Of a DNA stretch of 64,000 nucleotides, positions 10,035 through 54,732 are shown piece by piece. Below the pieces are notes generated by a model. The model saw only the letters and a list, made by a program, of their open reading frames with translations, did not search any database and was not told the origin of the DNA. Made by a program: the position numbers and the translations under genes. How positions within the stretch are numbered: the stretch's first letter is position 1; each line of letters starts with the position of its first letter. The stretch spans positions 17,310 through 81,309 of the forward strand of contig CANEDJ010000001.1 of NCBI GenBank assembly GCA_947426265.1. The letters run 5' to 3'. The stretch comes from an uncultured Mycoplasmatota bacterium (lineage in GTDB: Bacteria > Bacillota_I > Bacilli_A > RF39 > UBA660).

Positions 10035-10065
10035 TAGAAAACATGATATAATGACCTCGTTTTAA

Positions 10066-10307
10066 AAACTTTGAAAGAGAGAATACTAGCAATTATTCAA
10101 AGAGAACTTACATTTGGTGAAAGTAGGTAATAGGAACTAGTACGAATGGCTCTGGAGTTGTTTATCTGAATTTTTTAGGATAAACCGCGATTTGCGTTAC
10201 AAAAGCAAGGTAAAATAAGTATGTGTAGTTCTTACAAGAAAAGCTTATTTTATAAAAAAAGGTGGTACCACGTTATCCCACGTCCTTTTATTTGGACGTG
10301 TTTTTTT
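10066..10307 (+). ncRNA. T-box leader (probable Met specifier) with intrinsic terminator/antiterminator
   Basis: AGAGAGA and AGTA stem I elements. Candidate AUG-G specifier at 10146-10149. T-box sequence aaaaaaGGTGGTACCACG at 10255-10272. Terminator cacgtcc/ggacgtg plus T7 at 10279-10307. Confidence 0.6.
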
Positions 10308-10363: not shown

Positions 10364-10855
10364 ATGGCAAGATATTTTGAAAAAATTAGTTGGGAACAAT
10401 GGAAAAAAGATATCGGGAATAATAGAGAAGTTTACGAGAATCATGAGCTTCCAAAACGTCAAACAAAATTTAGCGCAGGCTATGATTTTAAAAGTCCTAT
10501 TGATGTTATTTTACATCCAGGCGATGTAAAGAAAATTCCAACAGGTGTAAAAATAGCGATGAATGAAGATGAAATGCTAATGCTTGTTGTAAGAGGTTCG
10601 GTAGGATTTAAATACAATGTGCGAATGACGAATCAAGTTGGAATATTTGAAAGTGATTATTTTAATAATATATCTAATGAAGGACATGCATGGATCAGTC
10701 TTCAAAATCATAGCAATGAAGATTTTATAATAAAAGTGGGAGATCGAATTGGACAAGGAATTTTTACAAAATTTTTGATGGTTGATAACGAAGAAGCGAT
10801 AGAAACGGAAAGACAAGGTGGATTTGGTAGTACCAATAAGGAGGAAAGAAAATGA
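10364..10855 (+). CDS. dut: dUTP diphosphatase (trimeric dUTPase)
   Basis: All five dUTPase motifs are present: SAGYDF, RGSVG, GIFESDY, DRIGQGIF, RQGGFGSTNK. GGAGG RBS. Confidence 0.8.
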   Translation: MARYFEKISWEQWKKDIGNNREVYENHELPKRQTKFSAGYDFKSPIDVILHPGDVKKIPTGVKIAMNEDEMLMLVVRGSVGFKYNVRMTNQVGIFESDYFNNISNEGHAWISLQNHSNEDFIIKVGDRIGQGIFTKFLMVDNEEAIETERQGGFGSTNKEERK

Positions 10856-12429
10856 AAGAAAAATTTTATATATCAACGGCAATTGCTTATACATCAGGAA
10901 AACCCCATATAGGAAATACTTATGAGATTGTGTTAGCAGATGCGATCGCACGCTTTAAAAGATTAATGGGATATGATGTTTATTTCCAAACTGGAACAGA
11001 TGAACATGGTGAAAAAATAGAAATAAAAGCCAAAGAAGCAGGAAAAAAACCTCAGGAATTTGTTGATGAAATTGCACTTGAAGTACGCAGAATTTGGGAT
11101 GTTATGAATACTAGTTATGATTGTTTTATGAGAACAACCAACCCAACGCACGAAGAGTGTGTAAAAAAAATCTTTAAACGTCTTTATGAACAGGGTGATA
11201 TTTATAAAGATGAATATGAAGGACTATACTGTACACCTTGTGAATCATTTTTTACTGAAACGCAGTTGATAGATGGAAAATGTCCAGATTGTGGAAGAGA
11301 TGTTCATAAAATGAAAGAGGAAGCTTATTTCTTGAAATTAAGCAAATATAGTAAACAATTGGAAGAATATATAGAAACCCATCCACATTTCATTGAACCA
11401 GAAAGCCGAAAAAATGAAATGATCAATAACTTTATTAAACCAGGTTTACAGGATTTATGTGTTTCTAGAACGTCGTTTACATGGGGAGTTCCAGTAGAAT
11501 TTGACCCAGGGCATATTGTGTATGTTTGGATAGATGCATTAAGTAATTATATTACTATGTTAGGATATAATCCAGAAGGGGAAAGCAGTGAGCGTTTTCA
11601 TAAATATTGGCCAGCAGATTTGCATTTAATTGGAAAGGACATTTTAAGATTTCATACAATTTATTGGCCTATTATTTTAATGGCTTTAGATTTACCACTT
11701 CCACATCAAGTATTTGGTCATCCTTGGTTACTTTGCGGAAATGATAAAATGAGCAAATCAAAAGGAAATATTATTTATGCTGATGATTTGGTTAGTCTAT
11801 TTGGAACAGATGCAGTTAGATATTATTTGTTGCACGAAATCCCATTTGCAAGTGATGGAACATTTACTTATGAACTATTAATTGAAAGAATTAATTCTGA
11901 TTTGGCAAATATTTTGGGAAATCTAGTAAATCGTACTATTTCAATGTCTAAGAAATATTTTGATGGAATGGTAAAAGAACCAGTAGCACCAGAAGCAATA
12001 GATCAAGAATTAATAAATATTGTAAGTAATGCTCCAAAAAGAGTAGAAGAAAAAATGAATGAATATCGTGTAGCAGACGCAATTGATGAAGTATTTGAAA
12101 TTTTTAGAAGAAGTAATAAATATATAGATGAAACAATGCCATGGGCACTTGCAAAAGATTCAGAGAAACAGAGTCGCTTAGCAACAGTACTTTATAACTT
12201 ATTGGAAGCCATTCGTTCTGGAGCCGTATTGTTACAAGCTTTCTTACCAGAAACAGCAGATGCAATATTCAAACAATTAAATACAGAAAATCGATTTATA
12301 GAATCCTTAAAAGAATTTAATGGTTTAGATGTTGGAATTAAGCTGAATGAGCCTTCCCCTTTATTTGCACGTATTGATAAAGATAAAAAATTGTTAGAAA
12401 TAGAAGAATATAATAGAAATAAGATGTAA
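10852..12429 (+). CDS. metG: methionine--tRNA ligase (short form without C-terminal tRNA-binding domain)
   Basis: HIGN (HIGH) motif, KMSKS motif and a zinc knuckle CTPC...CPDC. 4-nt overlap with dut. Confidence 0.9.
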   Translation: MKEKFYISTAIAYTSGKPHIGNTYEIVLADAIARFKRLMGYDVYFQTGTDEHGEKIEIKAKEAGKKPQEFVDEIALEVRRIWDVMNTSYDCFMRTTNPTHEECVKKIFKRLYEQGDIYKDEYEGLYCTPCESFFTETQLIDGKCPDCGRDVHKMKEEAYFLKLSKYSKQLEEYIETHPHFIEPESRKNEMINNFIKPGLQDLCVSRTSFTWGVPVEFDPGHIVYVWIDALSNYITMLGYNPEGESSERFHKYWPADLHLIGKDILRFHTIYWPIILMALDLPLPHQVFGHPWLLCGNDKMSKSKGNIIYADDLVSLFGTDAVRYYLLHEIPFASDGTFTYELLIERINSDLANILGNLVNRTISMSKKYFDGMVKEPVAPEAIDQELINIVSNAPKRVEEKMNEYRVADAIDEVFEIFRRSNKYIDETMPWALAKDSEKQSRLATVLYNLLEAIRSGAVLLQAFLPETADAIFKQLNTENRFIESLKEFNGLDVGIKLNEPSPLFARIDKDKKLLEIEEYNRNKM

Positions 12430-46137: not shown

Positions 46138-47013
46138 ATGATGAGAATTAGTAATGAATGGAATGAATTTAAATGTTTAGATGCAGGAAATGGAGAAAAG
46201 TTGGAGAGTTGGAATGGTATTATTTTAAGACGGCCAGATCCACAAGCCATTTGGACTGTTAATAAGGATATTGATATATGGAAAAAAGTAGATGGACAGT
46301 ATTTTAGAAGTAATAAAGGTGGAGGAGAATGGAAATTTTTTAAAAAACTCCCAGAGTATTGGACTGTTACTTATAAAGGTTTAATGTTTAAGATTAGTCC
46401 TACGAATTTTAAGCATACTGGTTTATTTCCAGAACAGGCTGTAAATTGGGATTTTATGATAGATAAGATAAAAAATAGTAATCGTAAAATTAAGGTTCTC
46501 AATTTATTTGCGTATACGGGTGGAGCTACAATGGCCTGCTCAAAGGCTGGAGCAGATGTAGTTCATGTAGATGCTTCAAAAGGTATGACAGAATGGGCAA
46601 AAGAAAATATGAGATTATCAGGTTTAGAAAATAATTTTATTCGTTTTATTGTAGATGATTGTTTAAAATTTGTGGAAAGAGAATATCGTCGTGGAAACAA
46701 GTATGATGCGATTGTTATGGATCCACCTAGCTATGGCAGAGGACCAAATGGTGAAGTTTGGAAATTCGAAGATAGTATTTATACTTTGATTAATGCTTGT
46801 ATTAAAATTTTAAGTGATAAACCTTTATTTGTCTTAATTAATTCTTATACAACTGGAATATCGAGTATTGTTTTAGAAAATATATTGAAGACAACTTTAT
46901 TACCTCTTTATCCAAATGGTGAAGTAGATGCAGGAGAAGTCGGATTACCAGTAGAAAGAAATAACCTGATATTGCCTTGTGGAATATATGGAAGATGGCA
47001 AAGTAATGATTGA
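46138..47013 (+). CDS. class I SAM-dependent methyltransferase (RlmI/RlmK-like fold, YbaJ-like position)
   Basis: LNLFAYTGGATMA SAM site and DPPSYG motif IV. Confidence 0.6.
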   Translation: MMRISNEWNEFKCLDAGNGEKLESWNGIILRRPDPQAIWTVNKDIDIWKKVDGQYFRSNKGGGEWKFFKKLPEYWTVTYKGLMFKISPTNFKHTGLFPEQAVNWDFMIDKIKNSNRKIKVLNLFAYTGGATMACSKAGADVVHVDASKGMTEWAKENMRLSGLENNFIRFIVDDCLKFVEREYRRGNKYDAIVMDPPSYGRGPNGEVWKFEDSIYTLINACIKILSDKPLFVLINSYTTGISSIVLENILKTTLLPLYPNGEVDAGEVGLPVERNNLILPCGIYGRWQSND

Positions 47014-47662
47014 TATCATTTATGAAGACAACCATGTGTTGGTTGTAGAGAAGCCAGTTAATATATTAGTACAGGCAGATGATACACATGATAAAGATTT
47101 ATTATCTATTTTAAAAGAAGATATAAAAAAACGTTATCAAAAACCAGGAAATGTATACTTAGGATTGGTTCATCGATTAGATAGACCTGTAGGAGGAATT
47201 ATGGTGTTTGCGAAGACAAGCAAAGCAGCTTCGCGCTTATCCGAACAAGTAAGGAATCACCAAATTCAAAAAAAATATTATGCAATAGTAGAAGGAAATT
47301 TAGATAAAAAGCAGGGCACTTTACGTGATTATTTGAAAAAAAATGAAAAACTAAATAAAGTGTTTATCGATCGTTCTGGAAAAGAATCTATTTTAAATTA
47401 TTTAGTAGTGGATAGTAAAGAAAATTATAGTCTTGTAGATATTGATTTGAAAACGGGTAGAAGTCATCAAATAAGAGTACAATTTTCTAGTAGAAATCAT
47501 CCTCTTTATGGTGATCAGAAATATAATAAAAATAGTAAAATAGGAGAACAGATTGCACTTTATGCCTATGAATTATCATTTTATCATCCAATAACAAAAG
47601 ATAAAATGACATTTAACAAAAAACCATCTAGAACTTTTCCATGGAGTTTATTTCAGATTTAG
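47006..47662 (+). CDS. RluA-family pseudouridine synthase (no S4 domain)
   Basis: Catalytic HRLDRPVGGIMVFAKT motif. Start ambiguous among 46979, 46988 and 47006. Translationally coupled to the methyltransferase. Confidence 0.65.
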   Translation: MIDIIYEDNHVLVVEKPVNILVQADDTHDKDLLSILKEDIKKRYQKPGNVYLGLVHRLDRPVGGIMVFAKTSKAASRLSEQVRNHQIQKKYYAIVEGNLDKKQGTLRDYLKKNEKLNKVFIDRSGKESILNYLVVDSKENYSLVDIDLKTGRSHQIRVQFSSRNHPLYGDQKYNKNSKIGEQIALYAYELSFYHPITKDKMTFNKKPSRTFPWSLFQI

Positions 47663-47743
47663 AAAATAAACTCTTTTTTTATTAAAAACATATTTTATGT
47701 ATAGAATCTCTCATTATTTACATATATTTTGATAGGTGATATA

Positions 47744-48403
47744 ATGACGAAATATAAAACTGGAATGATCGTTTTATTGCTTTTATGTCTTTGTAGCTTT
47801 CATTTTGTAAAAGCAGAAGAACAACCGAAGGCATTAAAAAATAAAATTATTTATTTAGATCCAGGGCATGGAGGAGCAGATCCAGGAGCCCTTTATAAAA
47901 AAATAGAAGAACAAGCGATTAATTTAAAAATTGCCAATAAGTTAAAACAAAAACTGGAGAGTGCTGGAGTAACCGTATATCTGACACGAGATGGAGATTA
48001 TGATTTATCAGTTCCATATGCTATTAATAGAAAGCGTAGTGATCTATCAAGGAGAGCTAATATTATAAATCGTTCTAATTGCGATTTATATTTATCAATT
48101 CATTTGAATGCAGAAACATCTAGTAGTTGGCATGGGGCAGAAGCATATTATGATGATGTAAATTCTGAAAATGAGAAAATTGCTAAAATAATGCAAGATG
48201 AATTTAGGAAAAGTCTAGACTCCAAACGGAATTATAAAAAAACGGATTCTATGTATTTGCATAAGCGAATTGAACGTCCAGGAGTTCTTTTAGAAGTCGG
48301 ATTTTTGAGTAACCCTAATGATCGATATTTATTAACACAAGATTGGTATCAAGATAAAGTAGCAAATTCAATTTTAAACGGAATCATTAAATATTTTTCT
48401 TAA
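47744..48403 (+). CDS. cwlD: N-acetylmuramoyl-L-alanine amidase (Amidase_3), CwlD-like
   Basis: Signal/TM segment. IIYLDPGHGGADPGA, YLTRDGD and SIHLNA zinc-site motifs. CwlD-like length. Confidence 0.6.
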   Translation: MTKYKTGMIVLLLLCLCSFHFVKAEEQPKALKNKIIYLDPGHGGADPGALYKKIEEQAINLKIANKLKQKLESAGVTVYLTRDGDYDLSVPYAINRKRSDLSRRANIINRSNCDLYLSIHLNAETSSSWHGAEAYYDDVNSENEKIAKIMQDEFRKSLDSKRNYKKTDSMYLHKRIERPGVLLEVGFLSNPNDRYLLTQDWYQDKVANSILNGIIKYFS

Positions 48404-48595
48404 ATTAAAGATATATGTAAGTGATTATTAAAAAATGTATTATTAATATTTAGTTTTTCTAATTACTTTTTTCTTTTATAAAAACTGAAATTTTGATGTA
48501 TAAAAATCATAAAAAAAGCAATTATAATAAGAGGAAAATTTTAGAAAATCACACGAAAATACCATAAAAAAAACATATTTATTTCATAAATAGTA

Positions 48596-48604
48596 TGATA
48601 TAAT
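48596..48604 (+). promoter_or_regulatory. extended -10 TGaTATAAT upstream of Abi gene
   Basis: TG at 48596-48597 and TATAAT at 48599-48604, 17 nt upstream of the RBS. Confidence 0.35.
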
Positions 48605-48621
48605 GAATACTAGGTGGTAAT

Positions 48622-49554
48622 ATGGGCGGCAAGATATTTAAAACCTTAGATGAACAAATAGAAATCTTAAAATCAAAAGGGTTGATAGTTGAAGACTTAG
48701 ATAAAGCAAAAGAGATTTTATTCCGTGAAAATTACTTTTTTATTAGTGGATATAGACACCTGTTTATGCGCACAGTGAAAGAAAGTAGATTTATTGAAGG
48801 AACGACTTTTGATGAGCTTTATGCAATGTTTTTGTTTGACAGAAAAATACGAAATATTATGTTCAAATATTTATTAATAATTGAAAATAATATCAAATCA
48901 ATCATCAGTTACACTTTGTCAAAAAAATATGGTTTTAAAGAAAAAGATTATTTGGACCCTAAAAATTTTACGCAAGATAATTTAAGAGTGAGACAAGTAC
49001 ATGATGTTCTAAATAAAATGAAAAGGCAAATAAGAGTAAATGGAAAACAACATGCTGCTACTATGCATTACCTTAGCAATTATGGTTATATACCAATGTG
49101 GATTTTAGTAAAAGTATTGTCATTTGGAATTGTTTCTGAATTATATTGTATACTAAAAGCAGAAGATCAAGAAACAATAGCAGATATATATGGTATTGAT
49201 ATTGAATCTTTAACGATATATTTAGCTCTTCTTTCAAATTTTAGAAATTTATGTGCTCATGAAGATATTTTATATGACCATAGGACCCAAAGAGTAATTC
49301 CAGATAATAAGTATCATCATATGTTAGATATCAGTCAAACAAAAGATGAATATGATTTTGGAAAAAATGATCTATATGCGCTTATTATTATCATGAAGCA
49401 AATGCTTAGAGAAGAAGAATTTCGAGAATTGATATATGAATTAGGTTATGAAATTGATATACTAGATGGTAAAGTAGAAGTATTACCATTAAACACAATT
49501 TTAAATAAAATAGGTTTTCCAGATAATTGGAGAGATATTGTTGATATGGATTAA
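48622..49554 (+). CDS. Abi_2 family abortive-infection protein (AbiD/AbiF-like)
   Basis: N-terminal LDEQIEILKSKGLIVED...YFFISGYRHLF characteristic of Abi_2. About 310 aa. Confidence 0.65.
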   Translation: MGGKIFKTLDEQIEILKSKGLIVEDLDKAKEILFRENYFFISGYRHLFMRTVKESRFIEGTTFDELYAMFLFDRKIRNIMFKYLLIIENNIKSIISYTLSKKYGFKEKDYLDPKNFTQDNLRVRQVHDVLNKMKRQIRVNGKQHAATMHYLSNYGYIPMWILVKVLSFGIVSELYCILKAEDQETIADIYGIDIESLTIYLALLSNFRNLCAHEDILYDHRTQRVIPDNKYHHMLDISQTKDEYDFGKNDLYALIIIMKQMLREEEFRELIYELGYEIDILDGKVEVLPLNTILNKIGFPDNWRDIVDMD

Positions 49555-49563
49555 GGAGGAAAA

Positions 49564-50652
49564 ATGAAGCAAAAAATAATTTATATAGTTACCATTATAT
49601 TGTCAATTTTTATAGGTGTTTCTGGAACTTTAGTAACCATTCGATTTTTTCCTGTAAAAACTGAAACAATAGAAAAGTCTGTAAAAACAGTTTCGATTAC
49701 AGAAGCAGATTCAATAAAAGAAGCTGTTTATAAAATTTATGATGCAGTAGTAGTGGTAGAGTCTTATAGAAATGGAAGGCAGACAGGAAGTGGTAGTGGC
49801 TTTATTTATAAGAAAAGTGATCAGGAAGGATTTGTTATAACAAATCATCATGTGATAGAGGGAGCGACTTCTATAAAGGTTGTTAATATGGAGGGAGAAA
49901 CTGTAGATGCAAAGGTTTTAGGAAGTGATGAGTATGCAGATATAGCAGTTCTTTCTATGAATATTAGCGGAGTTTTGGCTGTTGCAGAAATTGGAGAAAG
50001 TAGTAAATTAGAGTTAGGAGATACGTTATTTACAGTTGGAACACCAGTTGGAAATGCTTATAGAGGAACGGTTACAAAAGGAATCTTATCTGGAAAAGAT
50101 AGAACTGTTTCAGTTGAATCTTCAAGTGGGAATGGTAGTTATATGATGTCAGTATTGCAGACTGATGCAGCAATAAATCCAGGTAATAGTGGGGGACCAC
50201 TGGTAAATATTAATGGAGAAGTAATTGGTGTAAATTCTTTAAAATTAGTAGAAGATGAGATTGAAGGCATGGGTTTTGCAATTCCAATTGAATTGGTAAT
50301 GGCTTCTGTCGAAAAATTAGAGAAGGGCGAAAAAATTGAACGTCCAGTAGTTGGTGTCAGTTTACTTGATGTAAGTAATTCTTATGCATTATATAGAAAT
50401 AAAATTACATTACATAAAAGTATTACATATGGAGCTGTCATTGTAAATGTAGAAGCAAATTCGGTAGCAGAAAAGGCTGGGTTGCAACAAGGTGACGTTA
50501 TTTTAAAAGTAAATGATGATAAAATTGAAGATGTTGCACATTTTAGGTATAATTTGTATAAATATAGCATTGGGGATAAAATAAAAGTAATTTATAACAG
50601 AAATGGAGAGGAAAAGGAAACTACCTTGACATTAAATCAAAAAGCAGAGTAA
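49564..50652 (+). CDS. htrA: HtrA/DegP-family serine protease with N-terminal TM anchor and C-terminal PDZ
   Basis: Catalytic triad context HHV, GNSGGPLVN, and a PDZ GAVIVNVEANSVAEKAGLQQGD. Starts 10 nt after the Abi stop. Confidence 0.8.
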   Translation: MKQKIIYIVTIILSIFIGVSGTLVTIRFFPVKTETIEKSVKTVSITEADSIKEAVYKIYDAVVVVESYRNGRQTGSGSGFIYKKSDQEGFVITNHHVIEGATSIKVVNMEGETVDAKVLGSDEYADIAVLSMNISGVLAVAEIGESSKLELGDTLFTVGTPVGNAYRGTVTKGILSGKDRTVSVESSSGNGSYMMSVLQTDAAINPGNSGGPLVNINGEVIGVNSLKLVEDEIEGMGFAIPIELVMASVEKLEKGEKIERPVVGVSLLDVSNSYALYRNKITLHKSITYGAVIVNVEANSVAEKAGLQQGDVILKVNDDKIEDVAHFRYNLYKYSIGDKIKVIYNRNGEEKETTLTLNQKAE

Positions 50653-50728
50653 AAGCTCTGCTTTTTAGATTTACTTCTTTTTACTTTTTTGTTATAATAA
50701 AAATAATAATAGAGGATTGGTGAAATTC

Positions 50729-52498
50729 ATGGAGCGAGAGGATTATTTAAAAGAACAGATAGAAACTTATATTGATCGTTTAGACTTATTAGGCATGCAA
50801 GAAGCGATCGATCAAAAGCGTGTTAAAGAAGCTGTTGATGAACTAGAAAAGTTAGCTACTGAATATATAAGTTTATTAGATGAAAGACTTGAAAGTCAAA
50901 TTCAAGGAATAGAAAAGAGATTTGTAGTTACTTTAGAAGAAGAATTAGAAAAAAGAAAACAAATTTGCGATGTTGTAAATAAAAGATTTGAAGAAATTGT
51001 ATCAATATTTTCAGATATAGAGAAAATAAGCGTTGCATCAGACCTTTGGTCACATATTAGTACTGTGATAGAAGCTTCAAAAAAACAAGTCCATGAATAT
51101 GAGAGCGATATTAAGTTAGTTGAAGAACAATTCATAAAAATAAATCAAGCAGAAAAAAAAGAAGCTAGTTTGAATGAAAATCGTAGAAAAGCTTATTTGA
51201 AGAAAACAGATTTAAGAAATAGACAAGTATCATTTGAATTTTTAAATGATGAAATTTTAGAAGTCTATCGTTCACTTTTAATTGAAGGAAATGCAGAGCA
51301 ATTAGATTTTTCAAATATACAAGCCAAAGAAAAGGCATTAAAAAAGCGTCAAAATCAATTGTTAGAAAATTTAGAGTTAGCACGTAATACCAAAGATGCT
51401 GAGGGTTATATAAAAGTTTATGAGGGACGTGTCAGAGAAAATCGATTAGAACTAGATAAAGTATCAGAGCAAACTTTTCTTCATTTGTTAAGAAGGATAA
51501 TGGATGCTCCAGTAGATAGCTATGAATCCTTAGCAAGTAGGACAAAAACAGTACAAGGAATGGTAAAATCTAGAATTTCTCAAGTAGAGCAATTGTATCA
51601 AGAAGGAATAGTGGAAAAGGAAGAATATACGACTCTAGCTTCAAGGATTGATCATAGTAGAATATATAGTCAATTGTCAGATTTGAAAGAATTAGACAGA
51701 AATGAAGCCTTTATAAGTTCAACTGAAGAACAATTAGAGCATACAAGAGATCATATAAAAGGAAAAGAAGAACTAGAATTAATATTTGCAGAACGTGCTA
51801 AGGAAAGAGGAAGAGTTGCAATTGTACCAGAGCCAATAGATCAGCCATCTTTATTAGATAATGGCGGAGAGGCAGAAATATTATTTGCAGATGAAGATGG
51901 ATTTGATGGTTATGAAGACTTAACCTCAAAACAAGTAAAGAAAGATAAAAAAAGAAGACGCCAAGTAATATCTATTGAGCCTGCAAAGAAAAGTTTATTG
52001 GAAAAATTGGGAAAAGCAATTGGAAATATTTCAAAAGGAATAAAAGACAAAATTATAGAATTGACGAAAAAGCCTACTAAGTATAATCCAGTAATAGGAG
52101 ACCAGATTGAGTTAAAAGAAAATGCAGCTATTTATGCTAATCCTTTAGATCTACCAGAAAAGAAAGATAAAAAAGAAGCAAAAGAATTAGGTTTAACTGG
52201 AACTAAATTATTTGTAGCAAGAGGTGTAATTTTAGATTATACGGGGACTCCGATTCATATTACAACAGATTATGGAGCAGATTTAGAAGCAATAGCTAAA
52301 AATATGAACTTAAAAGAGGGAACATATAGTATCGCTTTAAGCTGTTCACTAGGAGATTCAGAAGGAAAATTTATTGCTTTAACTGATGATAAATTAAATC
52401 CAGATATTGAAAAAGGCTGGATTAGCGCAGTGGATATGAATATAATCATTCTAAATTCATTAAGTGCCGCAAAGGAAAAGGGAGGAATGAAAAAATGA
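50729..52498 (+). CDS. hypothetical long coiled-coil protein with globular C-terminal domain
   Basis: About 590 aa. The first 330 aa have heptad-like Glu/Lys/Leu periodicity. Basic KKDKKRRRQ patch. No TM. Confidence 0.45.
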   Translation: MEREDYLKEQIETYIDRLDLLGMQEAIDQKRVKEAVDELEKLATEYISLLDERLESQIQGIEKRFVVTLEEELEKRKQICDVVNKRFEEIVSIFSDIEKISVASDLWSHISTVIEASKKQVHEYESDIKLVEEQFIKINQAEKKEASLNENRRKAYLKKTDLRNRQVSFEFLNDEILEVYRSLLIEGNAEQLDFSNIQAKEKALKKRQNQLLENLELARNTKDAEGYIKVYEGRVRENRLELDKVSEQTFLHLLRRIMDAPVDSYESLASRTKTVQGMVKSRISQVEQLYQEGIVEKEEYTTLASRIDHSRIYSQLSDLKELDRNEAFISSTEEQLEHTRDHIKGKEELELIFAERAKERGRVAIVPEPIDQPSLLDNGGEAEILFADEDGFDGYEDLTSKQVKKDKKRRRQVISIEPAKKSLLEKLGKAIGNISKGIKDKIIELTKKPTKYNPVIGDQIELKENAAIYANPLDLPEKKDKKEAKELGLTGTKLFVARGVILDYTGTPIHITTDYGADLEAIAKNMNLKEGTYSIALSCSLGDSEGKFIALTDDKLNPDIEKGWISAVDMNIIILNSLSAAKEKGGMKK

Positions 52499-53367: not shown

Positions 53368-53441
53368 AGGGGTATAGTTCAATGGTAGAATAACGGTCTC
53401 CAAAACCGCTGATGTGGGTTCAACTCCTGCTACCCCTGCCA
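53368..53441 (+). tRNA. trnW: tRNA-Trp (anticodon CCA), CCA 3' end encoded
   Basis: Folded by hand into a cloverleaf. Acceptor AGGGGTA/TACCCCT, D-arm GTTC-AATGGTA-GAAT, anticodon loop CTCCAAA, T-arm GTGGG-TTCAACT-CCTGC, discriminator G. Confidence 0.75.
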
Positions 53442-54029: not shown

Positions 54030-54732
54030 GAAATGGTAGAAGTAATTCGAATAGATTAGTTTCTAATATATAATGAAACTGAATTTGTGACAAGGAATTA
54101 CTCATAAAGCATATGAGGAACTTAATTTGTCCGATGTACAATTAGAAACTTTTATAGAAAGATTAATTATTGATATAAATGCTCTAACATATGAGGACTT
54201 AGAAAAATAGTTTTTGCACAATTAAAAAATGAGTTTTCTTGTAATGACGAACTCTTAGAATTATATTTTATAAAGGCTGGGAGTATAATAAAAGAGTTGG
54301 CTGTAAAAGATGATGTAAATGACAGAAAAATAAGCAAAAAAGTTTTTTAAAGTTAATATCAGATGTTAATAAAACCTTAGATAGTTGGTATGTTAGCAAG
54401 ATTGGTATAGAGAAATATTGTAAATTAATGAGAAAAAAATATCTCAAATGTATGGTAATAGAGAAATTATGACATCTATCATTAGATATTTGAATAGCTT
54501 AGGATGTAAGACTTCTACTGATAAAGAGTTCAATAAAAGTAGTATAGGAAGAATATTAAACAATAAAAAGTATATAGGAGTTTATTTACATAGAGATATA
54601 GAAACCCCAGATGGAATACCTAGAATAATAGAAGATGAATTGTTTGGGAAAGTTCAACAGGAGCTAACCAGGAACGGTTTGGTGTCTGCTAGAAATAGAG
54701 CAAATTTTATTAAAAGAAATAAAAAATTATAA
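54030..54732 (+). pseudogene. decayed large serine recombinase gene (frameshifted fragments; longest piece 54448..54732 retains recombinase-domain similarity)
   Basis: The 94-aa fragment IIRYLNSLGCKTSTDKEFNKSSIGRILNNKKYIGVY...IIEDELFGKVQQEL matches the recombinase domain that follows the resolvase domain in large serine recombinases. Upstream 400 bp holds several short out-of-frame ORF pieces and no intact N-terminal catalytic domain. Confidence 0.4.

Follow-up and report, generated by a model that had tools for sequence, protein, structure and literature searches.

A vertically inherited AbiF-fold HEPN gene upstream of htrA in uncultured low-GC gut Bacilli: a putative domesticated RNase

The whole stretch of DNA analysed here (the window; 64 kb from contig CANEDJ010000001.1 of an uncultured Mycoplasmatota bacterium) carries a gene for an Abi_2 family protein (abi) that is followed directly by a gene for a serine protease of the HtrA type (htrA). 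The same arrangement, with abi directly 5' of htrA, was found in 77 of 80 species loci, and abi-htrA has been passed down vertically in a large clade of gut Bacilli that are uncultured and low in GC. Abi has the AbiF fold and an intact HEPN catalytic motif, and abi behaves like a core gene, unlike a typical accessory defence gene. The best reading, which we hold to be reasonably probable, is that abi would encode a domesticated, transcriptionally controlled HEPN RNase that is co-induced with HtrA. The elements of the two-gene unit in the window, together with its usual upstream neighbour, are as follows:

48563..48588, + strand: three CAYA repeats with an 11-nt period (CATAAAAAAAACATATTTATTTCATA), directly 5' of the extended -10; candidate response-regulator site, CssR-box-like
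48596..48604, + strand: predicted extended -10 (TGATATAAT; hexamer 48599-48604), 17 nt before the abi ATG
48612..48617, + strand: Shine-Dalgarno sequence of abi (AGGTGG), in a predicted leader of only ~10 nt
48622..49554, + strand: abi, 310 aa, Abi_2 / AbiD-F group, AbiF fold, predicted cytoplasmic HEPN RNase
49243..49260, + strand: codons for R208-N-L-C-A-H213, the HEPN RNxxxH catalytic motif
49555..49559, + strand: Shine-Dalgarno sequence of htrA (GGAGG), abutting the abi stop codon
49564..50652, + strand: htrA, 362 aa, S1C serine protease with an N-terminal anchor, a trypsin-like domain and one PDZ domain
49576..49644, + strand: putative membrane anchor of HtrA (~residues 5–27), as read from the sequence
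50639..50666, + strand: intrinsic-terminator-like hairpin, overlapping the htrA stop codon and ending the two-gene unit
47729..48403, + strand: CwlD-like N-acetylmuramoyl-L-alanine amidase gene, the usual upstream neighbour, outside the abi-htrA unit

Related loci were obtained from a scan of genome contigs with the HtrA protein, keeping one genome per species, and the sample consists of the best 80 of 196 HtrA relatives (HtrA identity 48–99%), all from metagenome-assembled genomes (MAGs). All 80 loci belong to uncultured low-GC Bacilli, which carry the NCBI labels 'uncultured Tenericutes/Mollicutes/Bacilli' and probably fall in the GTDB order RF39, and the contigs of two of them (L009 and L032) are assembled whole chromosomes of ~1.2 Mb. 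One locus, L019 (CAYOYB010000004.1), is labelled 'uncultured Muribaculaceae' (Bacteroidota), yet it shows the low-GC Bacilli order methyltransferase-RluA-CwlD-like amidase-Abi-HtrA; the label of this MAG probably reflects a mistake in binning or naming. The abi genes of the relatives were found by tblastn and ORF (open reading frame) extraction, which gave 76 scorable sequences. At the 77th locus (L039) an Abi pseudogene or disrupted gene was considered and ruled out, as the gaps are runs of masked N.

In the window the two genes are separated by only 9 nt (GGAGGAAAA, 49555-49563), so that the htrA ATG starts 10 nt past the last base of the abi stop codon. The junction ranges from -28 to +21 nt in 76 loci and is mostly 8–12 nt, where values below zero probably reflect over-long htrA start calls under the ORF rule used. 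The Shine-Dalgarno sequence of htrA overlaps or abuts the abi stop codon in the related loci as well, an arrangement that is consistent with translational coupling. A separate look-up of one very abundant species, based on precomputed Pfam labels, gave the order rplM-rpsI-...-MTase-Amidase_3-Abi_2-Trypsin/PDZ. Of the 73 evaluable loci, 48 have the CwlD-like gene no more than 400 nt upstream of abi; it is displaced or absent in the other 25, and the abi-htrA pair is still intact in these. The pair is thus steadier than its flanks, and the fixed Abi-HtrA coupling that the original prediction had raised is borne out by the adjacency in other genomes.

The Abi protein matches the Pfam family Abi_2 (PF07751) with an E-value of 3.5e-41 (142 bits, cut-off 25.6) and the AbiD model of PADLOC with an E-value of 9.6e-62, covering residues 4–307. 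By sequence it also matches PDB chain 8vz6 (PbAbiF; E-value 1.1e-18), in an alignment that pairs R208 with R210 and H213 with H215; the double alanine mutant of these two PbAbiF residues is reported to be inactive (PMC12373285). A model of Abi built on 55 sequences with AlphaFold2 (AF2) has a predicted local distance difference test (pLDDT) score of 90.5. When this model was searched against PDB with Foldseek, 8vz6_A was matched over the full length (E-value 1.7e-11, TM 0.74/0.77) and no second match was found at E ≤ 0.001. The HEPN motif R-(N/H/D)-x-x-x-H is present as RNLCAH at residues 208–213. Across the 76 sequences 88 of the 310 positions are at least 97% invariant, and R208, N209, C211, A212, H213, and E214 are invariant in all of them. 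The sequence match, the match of the AF2 fold and the invariant RNxxxH together give the assignment of Abi as an AbiF-fold HEPN protein. By homology with known HEPN proteins (superfamily survey PMC3710099; PMC12373285) Abi would have RNase activity, and it is presumably a dimeric HEPN RNase. No membrane or signal segment was seen by inspection of the Abi sequence.

The ORF that follows matches Trypsin_2 (E-value 9.4e-29) and PDZ_2 (E-value 2.6e-17), and the membrane-anchored S1C protease with a PDZ domain that had been predicted 10 nt after abi, with a GGAGG of its own, was recovered. NCBIfam models of the HtrA/Do family match it at 272 bits, under their equivalog cut-offs, and membership in HtrA/DegP (MEROPS S1C) holds at the family level, not at the equivalog level. 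The catalytic triad H96, D126, and S209 (in GNSGGPL) is invariant across the related loci, and the HtrA family is one of ordinary housekeeping proteases. By inspection the N-terminus consists of MKQK followed by ~23 hydrophobic residues, which reads as a membrane anchor. In Gram-positive HtrA proteins an N-terminal helix is the predicted tether, and the protease and PDZ domains are located outside the membrane (PMC12826053). The topology that the sequence and this literature suggest for the present HtrA is an N-terminal anchor with the catalytic and PDZ domains extracytoplasmic. The trypsin domain (residues 47–249) also gave a weak match to the PADLOC model RT-Protease_XI (7.7e-18). A system of this type was ruled out, as the match represents the generic trypsin domain only and the Pfam scan found no reverse transcriptase domain in either the abi or the htrA ORF.

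Comparison of Abi and HtrA identity over 2850 species pairs showed that Abi is the more conserved protein in 98.8% of the pairs, with a mean identity of 66.6% vs 54.2%. The divergences of the two proteins are correlated (r = 0.80), which fits joint vertical descent. In close pairs the ratio of non-synonymous to synonymous divergence (omega, by NG86) is 0.014–0.09 for Abi and 0.04–0.14 for HtrA; purifying selection on Abi is strong, and stronger than on HtrA. In each of the 26 loci that carry a complete set of five syntenic core genes, Abi is the most or second most conserved of the five, with a conservation close to that of the neighbouring methyltransferase gene. Furthermore, abi is intact in all 76 scorable loci, with no pseudogenes, and is present as a single copy in the window and in the fetched loci. 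Abi_2 genes have otherwise been described as patchy within species and enriched beside defence and mobilome genes (PMC12373285).

The closest public relative, L001, shows an uneven pattern at synonymous sites. Here abi (48622-49554 in the window, 9059-9991 in L001) has a synonymous divergence (dS) of ~0.37 and the adjacent htrA only ~0.18, while both proteins are ~99% identical. This may be short-gene noise or the result of local recombination.

Another feature of abi concerns the RNA partner of this protein family. The AbiD/F systems combine a HEPN protein with an upstream non-coding RNA (ncRNA) that carries abiF motifs (Rfam RF03085), an arrangement similar to type III toxin-antitoxin (TA) systems in which the ncRNA blocks the HEPN active site and so neutralises the protein (PMC12373285, PMC13064643). 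The statement that Abi_2 proteins usually act alone, on which the original prediction leaned, is therefore out of date. A permissive Rfam scan of positions 47600-51000 of the window found no abiF motif at E ≤ 10, and none was found at E ≤ 1 in 10 other clade loci. As a positive control, the motif was detected 5' of the AbiF of phage phiC2 (37.6 bits). The geometry agrees, with no room for an upstream ncRNA before abi: in most loci the -10 element ends 15–18 nt before the ATG, and cwlD and abi are separated by a median of ~97 nt.

Compared with the AbiF systems that resemble type III TA systems, namely PbAbiF of Prevotellaceae (8vz6) and AbiFCd of C. difficile with its RCd22 ncRNA, Abi shares the family, the fold and the position of RNxxxH. 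The genes of those systems are borne on a prophage, a plasmid or an island; unlike them, abi is a chromosomal, single-copy core gene that lacks a detected upstream abiF ncRNA and is followed by htrA in a predicted operon. Kinship with the lactococcal AbiD/AbiD1/AbiF proteins is that of Abi_2 HEPN proteins, as also seen from the match to the AbiD model of PADLOC. The lactococcal AbiD/F genes are plasmid-borne, weakly expressed and dependent on a conserved upstream sequence or RNA (PMC13064643), unlike abi with its short predicted leader and htrA-type promoter.

Outgroups were sought in a library of representatives at 50% identity. In this library the clade Abi is found as one full-length representative (65% identity) and fragments, and the next sequences are at ≤42%. 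Five of the nearest outgroup Abi_2 genes could be placed on contigs. Three are situated just past prophage lysis genes (CHAP/LysM; Amidase_2 and a holin; ChW), one lies beside a phage portal gene and one has an unrelated chromosomal setting, and none of the five has an HtrA gene beside it. The plasmid and phage collections held no closer Abi relatives above 33% identity, the identity to phage and plasmid Abi_2 being 25–33%. The link to HtrA is specific to the tight clade, since the outgroup Abi_2 genes never adjoin HtrA and the plasmid and phage collections gave nothing above 33%. An origin of Abi from a prophage-type Abi_2 is plausible.

The extended -10 promoter region that had been assigned to the Abi_2 ORF (TGATATAAT at 48596-48604) stands up well in the comparison. 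In 75 of the 76 loci the motif TGnTAYANT is found no farther than 45 nt from the abi start, and its end lies mostly 15–18 nt (mode 16) before the ATG. A Shine-Dalgarno sequence, TAGGTG(A/G), 5' of the abi ATG is conserved in most species. As a generic promoter scan of the region gave 41 sites against 43.6 expected from shuffled sequence, the promoter call rests on cross-species conservation.

Promoter repeats were compared across 75 related loci. CAYA peaks at -11, -22/-21, -33/-32, and -44/-42 relative to the TG, with an 11-nt period and with A/T tracts before it. At least three of the four phased CAYA sites are present in 27 of the 75 loci as opposed to ~0 in shuffles, and phasing of the CAYA repeats is seen in about half of the loci. 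With one mismatch allowed, there are 39 copies of TTTTCACA as opposed to 6.0±2.5 in shuffles. The CAYA-N7-CAYA-N7-CAYA at 48563-48588 is the only one in the 64-kb window. The htrA and htrB promoters of B. subtilis each carry the octamer TTTTCACA four times. In that species TTTTCACA represents the canonical CssR box (PMC6749698), and htrA genes are switched on by CssRS when cells meet secretion, heat or envelope stress (PMC12826053). The CAYA repeats may thus be regarded as a candidate CssR-box-like operator. The one-PDZ HtrA with its putative anchor and the direct repeats that resemble the CssR box recall the CssRS-controlled htrA/htrB of B. subtilis and Gram-positive htrA genes controlled by two-component systems; unlike those loci, the present one has a predicted HEPN RNase gene between the promoter and htrA.

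A terminator-type hairpin with a T-run was found at the equivalent site after htrA in 63 of 74 related loci. An internal htrA promoter inside abi was ruled out, as just 2 of 76 loci carry a TGnTATAAT in the final 200 nt of abi. Abi and htrA are predicted to be transcribed as one bicistronic mRNA, based on the few internal -10 elements, the terminator after htrA and the tight junction.

Three species have htrA without abi before it: L028, L040, and L054, of which L054 bears the label Clostridium sp. CAG:1193. In L028 and L054 we identified repeats of the TTTACACA type, a TGATATAGT or TGATATATT element, a short leader and a Shine-Dalgarno sequence directly before htrA, and in L040 a nadD-like gene is located 9 nt 5' of htrA. 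As L028 and L054 carry the same promoter directly before htrA, abi is embedded in the htrA unit, between htrA and what reads as htrA's own promoter in the Abi-less relatives. The three are mutually the closest HtrA relatives (61–71% identity) and form one group nested among Abi-bearing species in a midpoint-rooted neighbour-joining tree of HtrA, in which the deep branches are poorly resolved. Since the Abi-less species form one nested subclade, a single loss of abi is the more parsimonious reading. Their loci (L028 1-322, L054 550-648, and L040 209-874) are natural abi deletions at this position and are useful for comparison.

The surroundings of abi-htrA are core chromosome. Upstream of abi the window contains rpsK, rpoA, an S-adenosylmethionine (SAM)-dependent methyltransferase gene whose product is weakly matched by rRNA methyltransferase models, an RluA-family pseudouridine synthase gene and the CwlD-like amidase gene, whose product matches Amidase_3 (E-value 3.8e-49) and scores 205 bits with the CwlD model, just below its cut-off of 221.55. 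The methyltransferase ORF (46138-47013) and the RluA-family ORF (46979-47662) overlap by 35 nt, the second starting with GTG, and the tblastn coordinates point to a similar overlap in many relatives. Between the amidase gene and the promoter, positions 48404-48520 represent an extra ~120 nt of intergenic DNA that is seen only in the closest relatives L001-L003; being confined to these, it was ruled out as part of the conserved unit. Downstream of htrA are genes for a coiled-coil protein without a family match, a DUF1292 protein and a cell-wall hydrolase, and tRNA-Trp.

The PADLOC and Pfam scans found no defence genes among the tested neighbours, and there are no mobile genes among the immediate ones. 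The defence-island check that the original prediction had proposed is thus positive for Abi itself, through the AbiD model, and negative for a surrounding island, with no PADLOC matches among the tested neighbours. A serine recombinase ORF of 94 aa with the 'Recombinase' domain only (54448-54732, E-value 9.2e-14) lies ~4 kb 3' of the unit, and tRNA-Trp (53368-53441) lies ~1 kb before it. The fragment looks like the remnant of an element formerly integrated close to this tRNA gene, and it is the sole mobile trace found near abi-htrA among the neighbours tested.

The coiled-coil-rich ORF just 3' of htrA (50717-52498, 593 aa) has no matches in Pfam, NCBIfam or PADLOC and diverges fast, with 67, 49, and 37% identity where Abi has 96, 97, and 86%. 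At its position another clade species (L091) has a PcsB-like coiled-coil protein and an M23 peptidase. Elsewhere in the window, a T-box leader (10062-10290, 112.5 bits, above the gathering score) is located 5' of the ORFs at 10364-12429.

According to the reading that we favour, a gene for an AbiF-type HEPN RNase would have been captured long ago between the htrA promoter and htrA. The captured abi would have lost, or never had, a cis-encoded neutralising ncRNA and would then have been retained in single copy as a core gene, with purifying selection above that on HtrA. Abi and HtrA would be made from one mRNA, and the promoter with its CssR-box-like repeats might respond to envelope or secretion stress as other Firmicutes htrA promoters do. 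Control of the RNase would have shifted from an RNA antitoxin to transcription. Envelope stress, and possibly phage attack, would then bring up two proteins at once: the protease for quality control outside the membrane and, in the cytoplasm, an RNase by which translation is slowed or reshaped. The role of the RNase could be that of a growth brake in envelope or phage stress, the trimming of mRNA load, or the processing of a specific RNA. The two proteins would be linked by co-regulation, not by a physical relay from Abi to HtrA.

Ire1 connects a stress signal from the secretory compartment to a cytoplasmic HEPN-class RNase that trims mRNA load. The likeness of abi-htrA to Ire1 and RNase L is in the proposed logic only, a functional analogy that is entirely speculative: there is no homology past the HEPN superfamily and no sensor or kinase domain, and the coupling would be transcriptional. 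A more far-reaching version is that a prophage-type AbiF toxin was domesticated into the envelope-stress response, where, antitoxin-less and induced with HtrA, the RNase would lower or reshape the mRNA load, perhaps for exported proteins, while HtrA would clear misfolded extracytoplasmic proteins. This might even constitute an envelope-triggered abortive-infection brake that is core to a gut lineage; in this full form we consider the idea tentative and rather unlikely.

Several observations weigh against the domesticated, co-induced RNase. The abiF motif also escaped detection next to several Abi_2 genes of plasmids and prophages, and its absence alone is weak evidence. These include the plasmid Abi genes L081 and L082 (Leptotrichia, Listeria), which are hence uninformative as controls, and the outgroup loci L084, L085, and L087, although these three have 200–380 nt of non-coding DNA 5' of the gene. 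Divergent forms may be missed by the Rfam model, or many Abi_2 genes may use a different RNA or none. An RNA partner for Abi might be encoded at another place in the genome. In 32 of the 75 loci a simple test detects no phased CAYA repeats, which are either absent there or too diverged, and the repeats would equally fit other regulators of the OmpR family (WalR-like half-sites on the opposite strand). A tblastn search found no OmpR-type regulator with its kinase in the window, and among the fetched loci only L036 had one, ~10 kb away. Finally, abi is not needed for the function of HtrA, since a three-species subclade has htrA without abi in front, and it may perhaps be dispensable in that subclade.

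Abi could instead be purely an abortive-infection RNase of the AbiD/F type for phage defence, which borrows the htrA promoter with no tie to envelope stress and is kept by phage pressure in the gut. Both sequence and fold place Abi fully within AbiD/F, its catalytic motif is intact, the closest Abi_2 proteins from outside the clade belong mostly to prophages, and PADLOC would call it AbiD. This fits poorly with the one fixed chromosomal position across the clade, as Abi_2 genes are reported to be patchy and located beside defence and mobilome genes (PMC12373285). It is also at odds with the low omega, with a conservation near that of the neighbouring methyltransferase gene, and with the lack of both a detected ncRNA partner and a defence island. 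We therefore regard pure defence as possible, with the odds clearly against it.

We consider it less probable still that Abi was exapted for a housekeeping role in which it processes or binds RNA, for example as a replacement for an RNase lost in reduced genomes or in autoregulation of the operon mRNA, so that the link to htrA would be a frozen operon. Core-gene conservation and the fixed position agree with such a role, as do the small size of the two clade chromosomes (L009 and L032), the eukaryotic members (Swt1) of the Abi2/Swt1 HEPN group and the inclusion of RNA processing in the superfamily (PMC3710099). Against it, the htrA genes without abi before them in three species argue against strict essentiality, if abi is truly absent there. 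The pair also survives rearrangement of its flanks, and promoter repeats that resemble the box of a stress regulator are atypical for a housekeeping gene.

The original prediction had suggested a two-gene defence system in which Abi senses infection and HtrA is the proteolytic effector, and this we now consider very improbable. The fixed adjacency, a junction that looks translationally coupled and the weak likeness of the trypsin domain to the candidate protease in PADLOC would suit such a relay. That match, though, is to the generic trypsin domain with no reverse transcriptase, and in the characterised AbiF systems the HEPN protein itself is the effector RNase (PMC12373285). A direct hand-over from Abi to HtrA is moreover topologically implausible, because the catalytic and PDZ domains of HtrA would be extracytoplasmic (sequence; PMC12826053) and Abi, without a membrane or signal segment, looks cytoplasmic. 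HtrA evolves as an ordinary housekeeping protease with an invariant triad, and in the nested Abi-less subclade htrA keeps its promoter and works without abi, standing alone behind the same promoter in L028 and L054.

Incidental adjacency through a recent insertion of Abi beside a housekeeping htrA can be set aside as scarcely credible: Abi_2 genes are often mobile (PMC12373285) and the GC content of abi is slightly low (0.268, z = -1.17), but its GC content at third codon positions (GC3) does not stand out in the window (z = +0.62), its borders show no repeats, recombinase or transposase, the arrangement is common to nearly all species of the sample, and abi is under strong purifying selection and co-diverges with HtrA. 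What stands of this alternative, which had also been raised at the outset, is its spirit, that Abi entered in front of a housekeeping htrA; the event was not recent, as it is ancient and fixed.

No literature linking Abi_2 or AbiF with HtrA was found, and the word phage is nowhere in the text of a 2025 review of Gram-positive htrA loci. Genes for 'posttranslational modification' were enriched downstream of abi_2 genes in a survey (PMC12373285), and this category could, as a guess, include abi-htrA cases.

The abi-htrA unit represents a known protein family in a new configuration, with no detected ncRNA, core and not accessory, and embedded in an htrA unit. Abi_2/AbiF proteins are commonly treated as accessory defence toxins restrained by RNA, and abi-htrA is a different state of the family. 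Automated tools, such as PADLOC here, would label abi an 'AbiD defence system' in every genome of the clade, which calls for caution against counting each Abi_2 match as a mobile defence system in reduced gut Bacilli. If the proposed function holds, abi-htrA would show clearly how a defence toxin can be exapted for core physiology, or how 'core immunity' can be tied to envelope stress, and it would provide a natural ncRNA-free AbiF to compare with the lineage leading from AbiF to Cas13.

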